DNA of 59,958 nucleotides, filler included. It is 7 parts of 7 records of this genome, joined end to end, with 100 filler letters (N's around TTAATTAATTAA, not from the genome) between each part and the next. Parts side by side here need not be neighbours in the genome. Positions count along the whole stretch, not along the records: positions 24,915 to 30,616 come from SRR31147125_21872; 6 more parts are not named here. The stretch is one strand, 5' to 3'. Positions within the stretch are counted from its first letter, which is position 1. Each line of letters opens with the position of its first letter. Both the position numbers and the translations under genes were made by a program. A model generated the notes under the pieces. That model was not told where the DNA came from. It made no database searches and saw only the letters and a list, made by a program, of their open reading frames with translations. Below, piece after piece: positions 5,627-50,587 of the stretch.

Positions 5627-5726
5627 NNNNNNNNNNNNNNNNNNNNNNNNNNNNNNNNNNNNNNNNNNNNTTAATTAATTAANNNNNNNNNNNNNNNNNN
5701 NNNNNNNNNNNNNNNNNNNNNNNNNN
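5627..5726. other. Artificial contig linker (N44-TTAATTAATTAA-N44)
   Basis: N run with all-frame stop linker; gene context changes across it. Confidence 0.99.
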
Positions 5727-16512: not shown

Positions 16513-16612
16513 NNNNNNNNNNNNNNNNNNNNNNNNNNNNNNNNNNNNNNNNNNNNTTAATTAATTAANNNNNNNNNNNNNNNNNNNNNNNNNNNNNNNN
16601 NNNNNNNNNNNN
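16513..16612. other. Artificial contig linker
   Basis: N44-TTAATTAATTAA-N44. Confidence 0.99.
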
Positions 16613-24814: not shown

Positions 24815-24914
24815 NNNNNNNNNNNNNNNNNNNNNNNNNNNNNNNNNNNNNNNNNNNNTTAATTAATTAANNNNNNNNNNNNNNNNNNNNNNNNNNNNNN
24901 NNNNNNNNNNNNNN
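24815..24914. other. Artificial contig linker
   Basis: N44-TTAATTAATTAA-N44. Confidence 0.99.
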
Positions 24915-24983
24915 CATAGTCAGGTTTTGTTAATATTTGTAACTCATTTTTCTTGCCACACTTCGGCTATTTTTTTAGCGCTC

Positions 24984-25013
24984 AACTACGGATAAAATTC
25001 TAAATGTTATATG
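24984..25013 (+). mobile_element. Integron core site (GTTATATG) at cassette 5' boundary; possible attI
   Basis: GTTATATG (25006-25013) is the exact reverse complement of CATATAAC (29072-29079) at the left end of the downstream attC; no attC-type right arm precedes it. Confidence 0.5.
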
Positions 25014-25065
25014 CATAGATATTAAAATCAAAATAATTTTATAGATAATATTTTTTATAAGGGAT

Positions 25066-26289
25066 ATGCTAATGGCTGATAAAACAATAAAGAAAAAATC
25101 AAATTGGCTATTTAGTAAATTTACAGCACTAATTGGTATTATAATAATTGCAGCCATAGGTTGGCTTGTTGGCCGGCAACTTGATTGGTGGAGTAGCGGT
25201 GATATACGTGATAAGTATATAGCTGTTGTAATAACCAACAAAAGTGATGCAACTTTTACGATTCCTAAAGAATTCCGTCAAGGATTTGGTGATCCTATTC
25301 CATTTTCATCGACAAATAAAAAACAAAATATTCGATTTGAAAAGATGGATGATTTATTATCTGCCGAGCAAGCACAAATAATTGCACAAAAATTACTTTC
25401 TGATGAAAATTGTATTATGATTATTGGTAACTCAACTAGCTCTCTTACTGAAGTGACTCTAAATTCTATCCTAAGCTCACAAAATACAAAGCCTGGTTTC
25501 TTATTACCAATTGCTACTGCTGACGATTTAATCGAGATGGCAAAAGACCAAAATTATACCGCCATTCTTAGAATGATGCCAAATAATGAAAGACAAGCTG
25601 TTAGCATCAAAAATTTTATTTTCCAAAAATTCAATAAGAGTGTAATTAAAATTGCTATACTATCTGATGAGGAAAACACTACATATTCTCATAATTTATC
25701 ACAAAAAATATCCGATAAAATTATTCTGGACAAGTCAGTAAATGGAAAGGAGGGAATTATTGTATTAAAAAAAGATTATGGTAACTCAAATAGGTTAATA
25801 AACGACTATAGTTTGTTGAAGCAATTTGCACAATTGCCGGATATAATAATTTTTGTAGGCATTTCTTCGAATGGTAGTTTATTGATGGAAGAATTGAAAA
25901 ACCTAAATATTTCTATTCCAGTAATTTTTACAGATGGATGTACTGTAAATAATTTGATGGAAAAATCAAAGAACAATCCCAATAACTATTTTATCTCAGC
26001 TGTTGATATTGATTTACAAGGTAATGAAAATAAAACACCGACTTATAATCCAGTTGGTATTGACGCTCGTGAATTGTCGAAAATAATAATAAGTAAGATA
26101 CGCAATAATGTTACAAGAGCAAGTGTAGCAAATAAAATTGAATCATTAAGAAAAGAGAATGAACAATTAATAGATAATGGGAGTGCTGGAAATTATCAAT
26201 TTAATAACAATGGAGATAACATGAAAATGAAGTGGCGAGTATATGCATATATAAACGACAAATTGGAAAAGGTTTTTGATGGAATCTAA
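25066..26289 (+). CDS. Membrane-anchored type I periplasmic-binding protein (LivJ/branched-chain ABC SBP-like)
   Basis: N-terminal TM helix; IIGNSTSS, LLPIATAD, ILRMMPNNERQA, IAIL..E..YS, VIFTDG motifs. Confidence 0.75.
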   Translation: MLMADKTIKKKSNWLFSKFTALIGIIIIAAIGWLVGRQLDWWSSGDIRDKYIAVVITNKSDATFTIPKEFRQGFGDPIPFSSTNKKQNIRFEKMDDLLSAEQAQIIAQKLLSDENCIMIIGNSTSSLTEVTLNSILSSQNTKPGFLLPIATADDLIEMAKDQNYTAILRMMPNNERQAVSIKNFIFQKFNKSVIKIAILSDEENTTYSHNLSQKISDKIILDKSVNGKEGIIVLKKDYGNSNRLINDYSLLKQFAQLPDIIIFVGISSNGSLLMEELKNLNISIPVIFTDGCTVNNLMEKSKNNPNNYFISAVDIDLQGNENKTPTYNPVGIDARELSKIIISKIRNNVTRASVANKIESLRKENEQLIDNGSAGNYQFNNNGDNMKMKWRVYAYINDKLEKVFDGI

Positions 26290-27678
26290 AAAGATTACTT
26301 TAATACAGCCGAGACATATTTATGCTCCAGATTTTTCATTTGAGAAAATTGGGCATATTTATATGCCTACATCATTGCTTGCTGCAGCAACCAAATTTCT
26401 TAATTCAGGAATTTCGGTAAAATTCTATGATGAGAATATTTATGAATGTGATACTTTTGATACTACAATCGGAATCAATTTACTCGGGGCTCCATATATA
26501 CCAACCATATACAATTATATTAAAAAGTTAAAAAGTTTATATTTTAGTAATTATAAGTTAATCATCGGTGGTCAAATAGCTAATGGCATAACTGCTTTTC
26601 AATTATCTACAATGTTCAATAAAAATATAGTTAATGGTAATAATTTTAATAATCTAAAAAATATCTTTTGCTTTGATCATCTACATCCTATCGAGGAACT
26701 TTCACTTATTCCAGCATATAAATTAATTCCAGAAGATTATATGAAAATCTATCTTTCTCATGAGTTTGGTTTTTATTTATCTCAAGGGTGTAAATACACA
26801 TGTGATTTTTGTGCTGCAAAACATAATGCAATTAATCCAGATACTGGCAAGATTAATGGTACAGGTGAGGTTTATAGAAATATAGAAATTGCTATTAAAG
26901 ATTTAAGATATTTAATAACTAAAGCAATTCAATTTGACATAAACAAATTAGTAATCTACTTATCAAACCTTGACCTTTTTCAAACACCTTCGATGTTGAA
27001 TCAATTCGCTTTAAAAGTAATTCGAATCAGGAAAGAGTATGGAAATTACGATTTAAAATTGAGAGGTCTATCAACTGTAAGATCTTTCATGCAAACTCAT
27101 AAAAAACACCCTGAAATAATTAAAAATATTATACAAGCGGGTTTATATCGTATTGGATTTGGGATTGATGGTGCAACACCAAAAGTTTGGAAAAAATTAG
27201 AAAACCTCAGACAGAATCAGAATGTATAAACGCGATATCTATTTCAAATATACATTATGGTATTATACCAGAAACTCTAATGGTATTTGGCCATAATAAT
27301 GTTGAGGATGAAGAATCTTTAAAATTAGCATACGAGTTTTCCGCTGAAATGCTAGATAAATATAGTGCTCTACCACGTCCTCATATTGCAAAAGATATTG
27401 TTCCTGGTAACGATGGCTGGTACAACTCGGCTAATAAAAATATTGTAAATTTATATATTAATAATCCAATGCTTTTCCAGAATTTAGATTTTACTGCAAT
27501 ACCTTCGCCGGTTACTCACCCTAATAATGAATTTCGTGACCTGGTTACAAAATACTATTTAAAAGTTTGTGAATTACCAAATTGCTTGACACAGTATGTT
27601 TTACCAGAATTGCCTAGCATGGATACTATAGAACTATCAAAGGTTAGAGCTTTTAATTTGAAAAGATACGATATATAA
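26279..27678 (+). CDS. B12-binding-like radical SAM protein, split by 1-nt frameshift in A run near 27191-27196
   Basis: GCKYTCDFCAA (CxxxCxxC), N-terminal LIQPR...LIIGGQ, AGLYRIGFGIDG; adding one A joins ORFs 26276-27229 and 27187-27678 into ~466 aa. Confidence 0.85.
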
Positions 27679-27690
27679 ATGGAGGCGGGA

Positions 27691-29049
27691 ATGGATTTAG
27701 ATAAATTCTTTGAGACAACTGTTGGCGTTATATGGAATTTGCCATTAGTTTTTTTAATAGTTTTTGTTGGTATTATATTAATTATTATCTCAAAAGGATT
27801 ACCAATAATAAAAATTAACCATGCATTCAAAATTTTGCGAGGTATGTACTCAGATAATGATCAACCCGGTCTTATCAGCCATTTTCAGGCTATGTCTGCT
27901 TCATTATCTGGTACTGTGGGGCTTGGTAATATTGCAGGTGTTTCTGTTGCTATAATTTCTGGTGGTCCAGGTTCGATTGTGTGGATGTGGCTTATAGGCA
28001 TTGTTGGAATGTTTATCCGATTTTTTACTTGTACGCTGGCTGTAAAATATAGAAAAGTATTACCTGACGGCAGTGTCTCCGGTGGGCCAATGCAGGTTAT
28101 TGAACAAGGTTTAAGTAAAAACTGGAAACCCCTCTCAATTATATCTGCGGTTTTAGTAATAATAGCTTCTTTTGGTGGTGGCACTATGTTCCAATCAAAT
28201 CAATTAAGTGTAGCAATGAATTATTATTTCTCAATTCCAAAAGTTTTTGTTGGTATTATTTTATCTGTATTAGTAGCATTAGTTATTCTTGGAGGTATTA
28301 AGCGCATTGGTTCAGTCGCAGCCAAAATAGTCCCCTTTATGTGCATTCTATATGTTTTTGGCTCTTTACTTGTTATATTTCTACATATATCAAAAATACC
28401 TTCTATGTTTATGCTAATATTTAGGGATGCATTTACAGGGCAAGCAGTTGCTGGTGGTATAATAGGTACAGTTATTGTTCAAGGGGTGAAGCGCGCTGTT
28501 TTCTCAAGTGAAGCAGGTTTGGGTAGCGCACCCATTGCTCATGCTGCAGTTAAAACAAATGAGCCGGTACGTCAAGGATTGGTTGCTATGCTTGATCCAT
28601 TCATTGATATTATAATTATTTGTACAATGACCGCTTTGGTAGTTACGATCTCAGGGGTTTACACCGATAGTAATATAATATCACAAGCTTCTTCTAATTC
28701 TGATCTTAAGGGATTAATAATCACAAGCGAGGCATTCAACCAATCAATTCCTGGCTTTGGTAAGTATTTTGTTAGTATAGCCGTATTCTTTTTTGCCTTA
28801 ACTTCTATTATAAGTTGGGCTTATTATGGTGAACAAGGCTGTCTTTATCTATTCGGCCAAAATTCTGTTATACCCTATCGGATATTCTTTATTATCGTTG
28901 TTTCTCTTGGAACAATTTGGAAATTTGGTCCTGTTATAAATTTCTCAGATACAATGTTTGGGTTAATGGTTATACCAACTCTAATGTCTACTGTATTGCT
29001 TAGTGGACAAGTTATGAAAATGGCAAAGCATTATTTTTCCAATAATTGA
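27691..29049 (+). CDS. Alanine/glycine:cation symporter (AGCS/AlsT family)
   Basis: GTVGLGNIAGV, GGPGSIVWMW, GGPM, FSSEAGLGSAPIAHA; GGAGG RBS at 27681. Confidence 0.95.
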   Translation: MDLDKFFETTVGVIWNLPLVFLIVFVGIILIIISKGLPIIKINHAFKILRGMYSDNDQPGLISHFQAMSASLSGTVGLGNIAGVSVAIISGGPGSIVWMWLIGIVGMFIRFFTCTLAVKYRKVLPDGSVSGGPMQVIEQGLSKNWKPLSIISAVLVIIASFGGGTMFQSNQLSVAMNYYFSIPKVFVGIILSVLVALVILGGIKRIGSVAAKIVPFMCILYVFGSLLVIFLHISKIPSMFMLIFRDAFTGQAVAGGIIGTVIVQGVKRAVFSSEAGLGSAPIAHAAVKTNEPVRQGLVAMLDPFIDIIIICTMTALVVTISGVYTDSNIISQASSNSDLKGLIITSEAFNQSIPGFGKYFVSIAVFFFALTSIISWAYYGEQGCLYLFGQNSVIPYRIFFIIVVSLGTIWKFGPVINFSDTMFGLMVIPTLMSTVLLSGQVMKMAKHYFSNN

Positions 29050-29072
29050 AATTACAGTTGTTGGACAAGATC

Positions 29073-29206
29073 ATATAACCAAGTGCTTGTACTGAACCGG
29101 CTAAGTGGGGCGATTTTCCGAACGTTCGGTGGTTTAATCAAGTCTGGTGTTTTTATTATCATTTTGTAGGTATCAATCGGCGGGCAGCACAGCACTATCG
29201 TTATAT
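29073..29206 (+). mobile_element. Integron attC recombination site
   Basis: ATATAAC...GTTATAT ends; AGTGCT(T)GTACTG pairs with CAGCACAGCACT with one extrahelical base and a mismatch that becomes G-T on the bottom strand; 134 bp; 23 nt after a stop codon. Confidence 0.75.
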
Positions 29207-29224
29207 TTAACTCCAAGGCTGACT

Positions 29225-29497
29225 ATGAAAAACCGCAAACATTTCTACCACAAGCCCTTACACTGGCCTCATACCAGCCAATCCCGCCTGCTTGTCACGC
29301 TTTACCTGTTAAACTGCGTGATCGGCTGGAATAAATTCACACTGCAGGCACAGAGCCAGCCTGCAGTTCCATTTCACGAGCCTTACAACGTGATGGAGTA
29401 TGGAGCAATAGGCGATGGACAGGTTAACGCCGCTGCCGAGATCCAGAAGGCCATTGTTCACCTAAATGAATGCCCTGACAACGTTGAATTTGGATAG
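29225..29497 (+). pseudogene. Truncated secreted beta-helix glycoside hydrolase (GH28/pectate-lyase-3-like N-terminus)
   Basis: YNVMEYGAIGDG...EIQKAI motif, then ends inside the 61-bp repeat. Confidence 0.6.
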
Positions 29498-29570
29498 GAA
29501 ACATTCCCTTTTTCATTGGTTTCGCAAGGGATTCGATGGAAAAAATGGCAAGGGGGTAAATCCCTTGCGA
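29486..29570. repeat. REP-like repeat, copy 1, with internal inverted repeat
   Basis: 29486-29546 recurs at 30556-30616; TCGCAAGGGATT (29522-29533) / AATCCCTTGCGA (29559-29570) perfect 12-bp IR. Confidence 0.8.
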
Positions 29571-29623
29571 GCAGGGATATTCTCTACTTAATTTGATAAA
29601 TAATAATAATTAAACGAGGCAAG

Positions 29624-30496
29624 ATGGTGAAAATAGGAATAATACAATTCGTTGTAATTCATCTGATTTTGCTGTCCGGCAATATTGGGTTTACAAAAGA
29701 AGAATCCGGAAAAAATAGTCTGATTGATTTTCGTGATTCCCGCTCTATAAAAAGCCAAAAACCTATATTGATAGCGCATAGAGGAGGGTACGTATCAGAT
29801 CAAAGTCCGGAATGCTCAATTGCAGCTATCCAGTTGGCTAAACAGCGAGGTTATGCAATGGTTGAATTGGACATCCAAAAAAGCAAAGATAATATTCCTA
29901 TTGTTTTTCATGATAATGATATGAAAACAGCATGTGGCATTAATAAAAGTATAAAAGACTTGAATGCTGACGAGATCGTAAAAATAGCTTATGCTAATTC
30001 TGATCAGATGATTTGCACTTTAGAAATGGCCCTGGATATTTGTCGTTCTTTGAATCTTGGACTTATGCTGGATGTGAAAATTAAGGGAGATGAAACGTTT
30101 TTTCAGAACATCGTTGCACTGGTAAAAAAGTATGGTTTTGAAAACTCTAGTGTTACAATAAATTCAGATCCCGTTTTACGAAAGCATTTAAAGGAAATTG
30201 CTTTGTTGACCGTTACTCAGGATGAATTCAATAAAGTGCAGAAAGGATTACCTTGTGATTTGAGCAATAAATTCTGGTTTGGATTACCGAACCAGTTGAC
30301 GAATGAGATGGTCAAACGTTTACAGCAGAATGATGCGTATGTGATTCCTGCTATCAACACATTCCGTTATCCGAATGAAGGGCATTATGAATTAGCACGC
30401 AAAGACATTCAAAGACTAAATGAAGCTGGCGTGGATGGTTATCAAATTGATTCCGTATATCAACCATTGTTTTTAGATAAGCAAAGAGAAAAATAA
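29624..30496 (+). CDS. Glycerophosphodiester phosphodiesterase family protein, secreted
   Basis: IAHRGG, PECSIAA, VELDIQKSKD.IPIVFHD, GVDGYQID; signal peptide. Confidence 0.9.
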   Translation: MVKIGIIQFVVIHLILLSGNIGFTKEESGKNSLIDFRDSRSIKSQKPILIAHRGGYVSDQSPECSIAAIQLAKQRGYAMVELDIQKSKDNIPIVFHDNDMKTACGINKSIKDLNADEIVKIAYANSDQMICTLEMALDICRSLNLGLMLDVKIKGDETFFQNIVALVKKYGFENSSVTINSDPVLRKHLKEIALLTVTQDEFNKVQKGLPCDLSNKFWFGLPNQLTNEMVKRLQQNDAYVIPAINTFRYPNEGHYELARKDIQRLNEAGVDGYQIDSVYQPLFLDKQREK

Positions 30497-30555
30497 TATA
30501 TAAATATGGCACTTTAGAGGAAATCGGTTTAGCATTATCTGCATTGGAAAGCATA

Positions 30556-30616
30556 GAATTTGGATAGGGAGGCAATTCCTTTTTCCTGGTTTCGCAAGGG
30601 ATTCCATGGAAAAAAT
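30556..30616. repeat. REP-like repeat, copy 2 (truncated at contig end)
   Basis: GAATTTGGATAGG...GGTTTCGCAAGGGATTC.ATGGAAAAAAT matches copy 1. Confidence 0.8.
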
Positions 30617-30716
30617 NNNNNNNNNNNNNNNNNNNNNNNNNNNNNNNNNNNNNNNNNNNNTTAATTAATTAANNNNNNNNNNNNNNNNNNNNNNNNNNNN
30701 NNNNNNNNNNNNNNNN
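30617..30716. other. Artificial contig linker
   Basis: N44-TTAATTAATTAA-N44. Confidence 0.99.
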
Positions 30717-42068: not shown

Positions 42069-42168
42069 NNNNNNNNNNNNNNNNNNNNNNNNNNNNNNNN
42101 NNNNNNNNNNNNTTAATTAATTAANNNNNNNNNNNNNNNNNNNNNNNNNNNNNNNNNNNNNNNNNNNN
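42069..42168. other. Artificial contig linker
   Basis: N44-TTAATTAATTAA-N44. Confidence 0.99.
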
Positions 42169-50487: not shown

Positions 50488-50587
50488 NNNNNNNNNNNNN
50501 NNNNNNNNNNNNNNNNNNNNNNNNNNNNNNNTTAATTAATTAANNNNNNNNNNNNNNNNNNNNNNNNNNNNNNNNNNNNNNNNNNNN
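50488..50587. other. Artificial contig linker
   Basis: N44-TTAATTAATTAA-N44. Confidence 0.99.

Follow-up and report, generated by a model that had tools for sequence, protein, structure and literature searches.

An attC-like site that follows an accessory operon of three genes on a 5.7-kb metagenome contig

We analysed a stretch of DNA of 59,958 bases (the window), which consists of seven separate contigs joined by linkers, and focused on the contig at positions 24915-30616 (5,702 nt, 33.5% GC). On this contig, a 134-nt element that resembles an attC recombination site of integrons follows an operon of three genes, which encode a binding protein, a radical SAM protein and an alanine/glycine:cation symporter (AGCS). 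The explanation that we prefer, tentatively and with a little less than even confidence, is that the element is a genuine attC-type site, functional or decaying, which stands alone like a single attC site lacking an integron integrase (SALIN) at the 3′ end of an accessory operon. It is read as a lone site because neither an integrase nor a second attC was found within reach. Judged on its sequence features, the element itself is probably a true attC or a decayed one. The present evidence is that of a well-shaped lone attC on a 5.7-kb metagenome contig and is not yet evidence of mobility.

The anatomy of the element agrees with the preliminary description of this DNA. It lies on the same strand as the genes and starts 23 nt past the stop codon of the AGCS gene (29049), and its full length, as described, is 134 bp. 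The terminal heptamers ATATAAC and GTTATAT pair at 7/7 positions. Inside them, the two stems pair at 6/6 and 5/6 positions (11/12 in total), and the 5′ arm, AGTGCT(T)GTACTG, carries one extra T, the extrahelical base already noted in that description. The second stem is followed by a bulge of 2 nt, where the reference sites introduced below have one A, and the variable part between the two arms is 87 nt long. The consensus of the attC boxes is RYYYAAC/GTTRRRY, from which the element departs at one position per box. In a site of this layout, the crossover is expected at G/TT, here between 29200 and 29201.

For comparison, we used about 150 attC sites from integrase-adjacent arrays of two phyla. 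The integron integrase, IntI, was called by matches to TIGR02249 above the cut-off and was present in 113 of 401 sampled genomes of Bacteroidota and in 17 of 168 genomes of Latescibacterota. The first reference set came from 16 stretches of about 16 kb beside intI in Bacteroidota; a search of these stretches for AAC...GTT hairpins gave one dominant attC family (GTATAACAAGCGTTTCAAGCGGAC...), which is common to the arrays of at least 9 of the 16 sampled genomes. Twenty members of the family were aligned for a covariance model, R1. In this alignment, 98.8% of the cells pair and five pairs change on both sides, a number reached by 6 of 500 shuffles. Of the 150 best matches of R1, 146 are on the array strand, and the matches form dense arrays. 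The reference layout is nnnTAAC, 2 nt, 6 bp, one extra base, 6 bp, a variable part, 6 bp, 6 bp, a spacer and C-GTTAnnn. The 2-nt 5′ spacer is AA in 88 of 102 sites, while the 3′ spacer measures 5-6 nt and the base before GTTA is C in all 102. The extrahelical base on the top strand (n = 97) is C in 86 sites, T in 10 and G in 1. The R box combined with a geometry of 2-nt spacer, 6 bp, one extrahelical base and 6 bp was found in 90 of the 102 reference matches.

We scanned for this layout with a 5′ spacer of 1-3 nt, a bulge of 0-2 nt, a 3′ spacer of 3-7 nt and at most one mismatch in the 12 pairs. Over both strands of the whole window the scan gave a single match, which is the element. The 16 arrays gave 102 matches on the array strand versus 0 on the opposite strand, and 132,544 bases of non-integron loci gave 0. 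There were five matches in 6 Mb of Markov sequence, none of them with 3/3 outer R-box pairs, and, with all spacer variants allowed, three on both strands of 400 kb of an IntI-less chromosome with 34% GC. None of these three has the canonical geometry or more than 1/3 outer R-box pairs. With filters off, the best match of R1 on the contig coincides exactly with the element (29073-29206), on the plus strand, end to end and in register; in a comparable control stretch of 3.9 kb, the noise of the model reached up to 5.9 bits.

One feature of the element, its 3-nt 3′ spacer, falls outside the 5-6 nt of the first reference set; its two spacers thus measure 2 and 3 nt, compared with 2 and 5-6 nt in all 102 sites of that set. 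In Latescibacterota, a site beside intI (L069, 11382-11442) shows the same 3-nt gap as the element relative to R1, at 25.2 bits, a second attC beside intI has a 4-nt gap relative to R1, and four sites of the L071 array have spacers of 2-3 nt. The occurrence of 2-3-nt spacers in attC sites beside IntI suggests that a short spacer can be natural.

We also folded the bottom strand, a check proposed in the preliminary description. In the minimum free energy (MFE) structure, base pairs form in the R box and in the two stems, and the probability of R-box formation (0.66) is above that of 85% of 146 real sites, but the MFE of -12.0 kcal/mol is weaker than that of 87% of them, with 13% as weak or weaker. 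The z-score of the fold is -0.8, and 30 real sites span -8.0 to -0.09. Since the fold is at the weak end and yet inside the range of real sites, the poor z-score is not disqualifying for an attC.

Several results weigh against a genuine attC. The R1 score of the element is 11.0 bits, with an E-value of 0.17 on the 5.7-kb contig that becomes about 2 when scaled by arithmetic to the whole window, and with default filters R1 did not report the element. The next match on the contig, which is noise, scores 9.5 bits, and the weakest real attC sites of other families found by R1 score 13-15 bits. The fold is no better than shuffles (z-scores of -1.08 and -0.16). The spacer range of the layout scan was widened after the element had been seen, so the chance estimate is partly post hoc and flatters the element somewhat. 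The scan found no second attC in the window, no tyrosine recombinase (Phage_integrase) was found among the 60 other open reading frames (ORFs) of the window, and the related copies and the integrase that the preliminary description had suggested looking for are thus missing from the available sequence. Likewise, neither R1 nor the layout scan found an attC in four complete relatives of the operon, and IntI above the cut-off was found in 0 of 5 relatives' genomes searched. IntegronFinder clusters attC sites that lie within 4 kb of each other. According to Cury et al. 2016 (PMC4889954), isolated single attC hits turn up about as often as their model yields false positives.

These points bear on the explanation that the element is not an attC but an inverted repeat of other origin, either a product of chance in AT-rich sequence or a structured element, so far unrecognised, where the operon meets a gene fragment, which we regard as somewhat unlikely, if well worth weighing. 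The narrow distance between its R1 score and the noise, the fold, the rate of lone hits, the three scan matches in 400 kb of real DNA and the mosaic nature of the contig, with its other repeats, are all consistent with it. Chance would hardly bring together, in one element, TAAC/GTTA with 3/3 outer R-box pairs, a C ahead of GTTA, the canonical 2-6-1-6 geometry, an extra base on the correct arm, the strand of the genes and a position 23 nt after a stop codon. Moreover, none of the five simulated matches and none of the three matches in real DNA has the full R box or the geometry of the element. The attC assignment of the preliminary description is upheld by geometry, in-register R1 alignment, orientation and position, whereas the score of its alignment to our own covariance model, although the best on the contig, stays near noise.

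A further explanation is that the element is a miniature transposable element or the end of an insertion sequence, bounded by imperfect terminal inverted repeats of 22 nt and perhaps by a duplicated TA. It can point to the terminal inverted repeats, to the TA that can be read on both sides of TAAC...GTTA and to a repeat-rich contig. To examine the copy number, we used one sequencing run, probably from the source sample, which carries the contig as a 5,704-nt Logan contig. Among the contigs of this run, the element occurs once at a likeness of at least 90%, its depth being flat at 33.3, and its 22-nt arm has no exact match in metagenome_contigs; nor is there a transposase nearby. We also considered a transcription terminator and rejected it, as none is predicted in the element. 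The single copy and the lack of a predicted terminator argue against both a transposable element and a terminator, and we consider the former very unlikely.

The operon that precedes the putative attC is tightly packed. Its three genes overlap or abut, as described before, and the ATG of the AGCS gene abuts the stop codon of the radical SAM gene. The first gene encodes a protein of 407 aa with an N-terminal hydrophobic anchor, as read from its translation; it has 39 homologues at an E-value of up to 1e-3, and in many of them PF13458 or PF01094, the type I periplasmic binding fold, is present. In the second gene, the radical SAM frame is broken in the window by a deficit of 1 nt in an A6 run at 27190-27195, and it is intact in the relatives (464-493 aa) and in the Logan contig. 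The Logan contig differs from the window by an A7 at this run and by one extra G behind 29496, and both homopolymer differences look like assembly errors of the window. Since A7 restores the reading frame of the radical SAM gene, the frameshift is probably such an error. No PADLOC model matched a protein of the operon (0 of 5). With low confidence, we predict that the operon takes up or binds a compound that resembles an amino acid and converts it by means of the radical SAM enzyme. The coordinates of all features are collected in Table 1.

Table 1. Features of the contig under study, artificial joints of the window and comparison loci. Coordinates are window positions, or positions within the locus where a locus handle is given.
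Feature	Coordinates	Strand	Remarks
attC-like site	29073..29206	+	134 nt; ATATAAC-CA-AGTGCT-T-GTACTG ... CAGCAC-AGCACT-ATC-GTTATAT
R'' ATATAAC	29073-29079	+	then CA (spacer), AGTGCT (stem), T (extrahelical), GTACTG (stem)
R' GTTATAT	29200-29206	+	after 3′ arm CAGCAC, AGCACT and spacer ATC
GTTATATG, proposed 5′ recombination core	25006..25013	+	60 nt before ATG at 25066
Membrane-anchored type I periplasmic-binding-protein-like gene, 407 aa	25066..26289	+	homologues; sub-threshold Pfam hits
Radical SAM gene, weak B12-binding-like N-terminus	26276..27678	+	window ORFs 26276-27229 and 27187-27678
AGCS gene	27679..29049	+	PF01235, 429 bits; TIGR00835, 428 bits
Secreted pectate-lyase-fold gene, 90-codon 5′ fragment	29225..29497	+	PF12708, 18.5 bits, below cut-off
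Multi-copy palindromic repeat, copy 1	29477..29590	+	stem TCGCAAGGGATT / AATCCCTTGCGA; not attC-like
Glycerophosphodiester phosphodiesterase (GDPD) gene	29624..30496	+	between the two repeat copies
Multi-copy palindromic repeat, copy 2	30547..30616	+	cut by contig end
Contig left end	24915..24943	.	first bin depth 196 vs 33 elsewhere; loose end behind 24943
Contig joint	24815..24914	.	N44, TTAATTAATTAA, N44; DNA to the left belongs to another contig, 52.6% GC
Artificial joints N44-TTAATTAATTAA-N44 (n = 6)	5627-5726, 16513-16612, 24815-24914, 30617-30716, 42069-42168, 50488-50587		
Three-gene unit between consecutive attC sites	L032 10793-14313		no attC between (R1, filters off)
Three-gene unit between consecutive attC sites	L038 8271-11456		IntI-adjacent array
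Binding protein-radical SAM-PF13536 trios	L001 9941-13535; L002 9923-13497; L003 9839-13676; L004 9917-13520		

The preliminary description had gone further and proposed that 25006-29206 excises as one circle, so that a whole metabolic operon would be packaged as a single mobile cassette. In its strict form, with 25007-29200 as one excisable three-gene cassette of a working integron, either first in line beside attI or a member of an array, and GTTATATG as its 5′ boundary, we judge this explanation unlikely. It shares the attC evidence for the element, namely the geometry, the scan and the R1 register, and no attC interrupts the unit: both R1 with filters off and the layout scan found none in 25006-29072, as had been noted. 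In addition, the G at 25013, the eighth base of the left sequence, complements the C before R'' (29072), as it would for the cassette's own R'. The proposed left core is 91 nt from the end of the contig, and in nine reference integrons the crossover of attI, which has a conserved core, is about 200 nt from the start of intI, so that an intI could lie beyond the 91 nt.

The left boundary itself is where the proposal of an excisable cassette loses ground. GTTATATG is present 60 nt before the first gene, as described, but it recurs at 27727 within the AGCS gene and is weak evidence for a boundary. GTTATAT occurs 18 times and GTTATATG five times in 83,570 strand-bases of AT-rich contigs, which corresponds to a chance of 3.2% and 0.9%, respectively, per 150 nt. 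The 98 nt that end at 25013 do not fold (z-scores of +0.40 and +0.51), R1 with filters off finds neither a whole nor a truncated attC there, and the base before GTTA is T, compared with C in 102 of 102 real sites. By eye, CGGATAA...ATGTTAT resembled the reference core of attI; this candidate was rejected, since a hidden Markov model (HMM) of the nine real attI cores has no match at the left boundary at E-values of up to 100, and unrelated places score up to 9.8 bits with it. The first 28 nt of the contig are common to other high-depth contigs of the same run, a repeat that is unexpected 60 nt from a single-copy attI. No joint of 29200 to 25007, which would mark the excised circle, is found among the matches listed from the contigs of the one run, a weak form of evidence as contigs cannot show its absence. 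Beyond a match of 7-8 nt, then, nothing indicates excision as one circle, as no attC or attI structure is found on the left, and the single mobile cassette is possible and unproven. A one-gene cassette with the AGCS gene alone was also rejected: no GTT lies between the abutting radical SAM stop codon and the AGCS ATG, and the only upstream GTTATATG, at 27727, falls within the AGCS ORF.

The unit, which had been called unusually large, is so in relative terms. With three genes in 4.2 kb, it departs from the usual cassette, which is short and has a single promoterless ORF: the median attC spacing in the reference arrays is 541 bp, and 4 of 135 spacings exceed 2 kb. On the other hand, two of these four spacings, in IntI-adjacent arrays (L032 and L038), measure 3.3-3.7 kb and hold three genes each from one attC site to the next, a point in favour of the excisable cassette. 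PMC4889954 gave about 2 kb as the size of the largest cassettes known in 2016, and both of these units exceed it. The three proteins of the L032 unit are one with an S74 chaperone domain, an unknown one and an S8 subtilase that carries a type IX secretion system sorting tail. Like these two units, the operon has three co-directional, tightly packed genes before an attC; theirs are flanked by attC sites on both sides near intI, whereas here there is one attC and the unit is at least 4.2 kb. A three-gene cassette of 4.2 kb would be at the extreme of the size range, not outside the kind.

We next compare the element and its setting with known systems. In common with the attC sites of IntI-adjacent arrays, the element has a length within 57-141 nt (the range given in PMC5371416), an nnnTAAC/GTTAnnn R box, a 2-nt 5′ spacer, two 6-bp stems with an extrahelical base between them that lies on the '' arm, a C ahead of GTTA, a bulge beyond the second stem, a variable centre and the strand of the ORFs. 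It differs from them in its 3′ spacer, of a length (2-3 nt) seen only in the second phylum, in its extrahelical base, which is T on the top and A on the bottom strand rather than the C and G of 86 of 97 sites, and in being AT-richer, at the weak end of folding and not in an array. SALINs, and the insertion of cassettes at GWT "attG" sites, are described in the preprint 10.1101/2022.09.11.507474. The present case resembles these in its one attC after coding sequence, with no integrase or other att site nearby, and in a left junction that is a bare GTT-containing sequence without a hairpin; it differs in having three genes, and the absence of an integrase nearby refers to a contig of 5.7 kb.

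For relatives of the operon, the genome collection yielded seven loci, of which four are complete. In these four, the binding protein is followed by an intact radical SAM gene and by an EamA-type transporter gene (PF13536) instead of AGCS, which means that the third gene has been swapped. The GC content of the unit is 2-6 points below that of the flanks in each relative locus. The unit of L004 is directly followed by GajA and GajB (Gabija), that of L003 by a TIR protein, and that of L002 by type I restriction-modification subunits, with a phage-type integrase upstream; the unit of L001 is within a Liv-type ABC transporter operon. The trio of binding protein, radical SAM protein and EamA-type transporter is conserved across phyla, has no model in PADLOC and may be a cargo module of defence islands. 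A literature search gave no paper that joins at least three of the terms radical SAM, defense island, periplasmic binding protein and EamA, and viral_contigs contains no relative of the binding protein.

The best relatives of AGCS (87% identical) and of the binding protein (81%) are seemingly on one contig of 15,085 nt, from which it follows that the AGCS form of the operon probably exists elsewhere too. The named relatives of the binding protein are from Bacteroidota, Latescibacterota and Nitrosomonas, and those of the neighbouring GDPD gene, at 73-77% identity, are from Sedimentisphaerales and Planctomycetota. As these phyla differ, the operon is patchily distributed and probably horizontally transferred, which, with the swapped third gene, we count in favour of the preferred explanation.

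The surroundings of the operon consist of 5.7 kb of true sequence context. Any feature that spans one of the six joints of the window is an artefact, and the GC content of the seven contigs ranges from 31.5 to 52.6%. Further to the left of the joint at 24815-24914, the DNA has 55-58% GC and is unrelated to the contig under study; the 60 ORFs of the remaining six contigs are housekeeping and transport genes. Both ends of the contig are bounded by repeats, as judged from the depth in the probable source run, and 24915-24943 represents either a repeat or a place where the assembly graph branches. No Rfam family was found on the contig at an E-value of up to 1.

Downstream of the element, a gene fragment with 46% GC starts 19 nt past its end, encodes a pectate-lyase fold and ends in a multi-copy repeat. 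This interruption shows that the contig is a mosaic with repeats. The claim that the operon segment is more AT-rich than the DNA after the attC holds for 29200-29599, which has 46% GC, but the difference reflects a gene fragment of only about 290 nt; beyond it, the GC content falls to 34-37%, and the unit as a whole, at 31.8%, is similar to the rest of the contig, at 33.5%.

The multi-copy repeat is about 100 nt long, with a conserved stem, a variable loop and a variable base at 29535. In the probable source run, the summed depth over 29505-29574 is about 826, compared with 33 elsewhere, and 74 contigs of the run align to the contig as a whole. Among the eight matches listed, seven cover the repeat, at depths of 32-37; five of the repeat-covering contigs listed are short (916-3,041 nt), and in five the repeat reaches one end or comes to within about 35 nt of it. 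To the right of other copies, the sequence resembles a ribosome-binding site followed by ATG. We considered the repeat as the organism's own attC and rejected it, since AAC/GTT boxes are missing and neither R1 nor the layout scan matches it. It belongs to no Rfam family, has no match in metagenome_contigs (by exact pattern) or viral_contigs, and gave 3 short, weak matches only in a BLAST search against the 401 genomes of Bacteroidota. The GDPD gene has 384 homologues at an E-value of up to 1e-20; most of the 120 listed are on contigs of 1-5 kb, and many of these 120 are 70-80% identical. This suggests that in other metagenomes, too, repeats that break the assembly often flank the GDPD gene.

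Taken together, the most likely explanation is that a lone attC-type site closes an accessory operon that is horizontally mobile. Going by how integrons are known to work, the bottom strand of the element would fold into a hairpin when single-stranded; its R box, stems and extrahelical bases would be recognised by an integron integrase provided in trans, and the cut would fall at G/TT. The operon may have arrived as a cassette or may still be one. It would then be either the first cassette next to an attI beyond the end of the contig or an insertion at a genomic GTT of the attG type, and 25006 would be only one candidate for its 5′ limit. The bolder version of this idea, in which an operon-sized cassette of 4.2 kb with three translationally linked genes is located at an attI or attG-type site of a probable Planctomycetota genome and carries a module of radical SAM protein, binding protein and transporter, appears to us improbable. 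If it were true, the cassette would be about twice the size called the largest known in 2016, integrons would move whole multi-gene modules between phyla, and the module would possibly be a new system of defence or nutrient competition. In view of the three-gene units in the reference arrays, the size of such an operon cassette is unusual without being unprecedented, and a lone attC is of a kind already described. If the attC is functional, the integron machinery could reach an entire operon of three genes that lies outside any recognisable integron, which would bear on the size limits of cassettes and on their recently described spread to genomic sites other than att.

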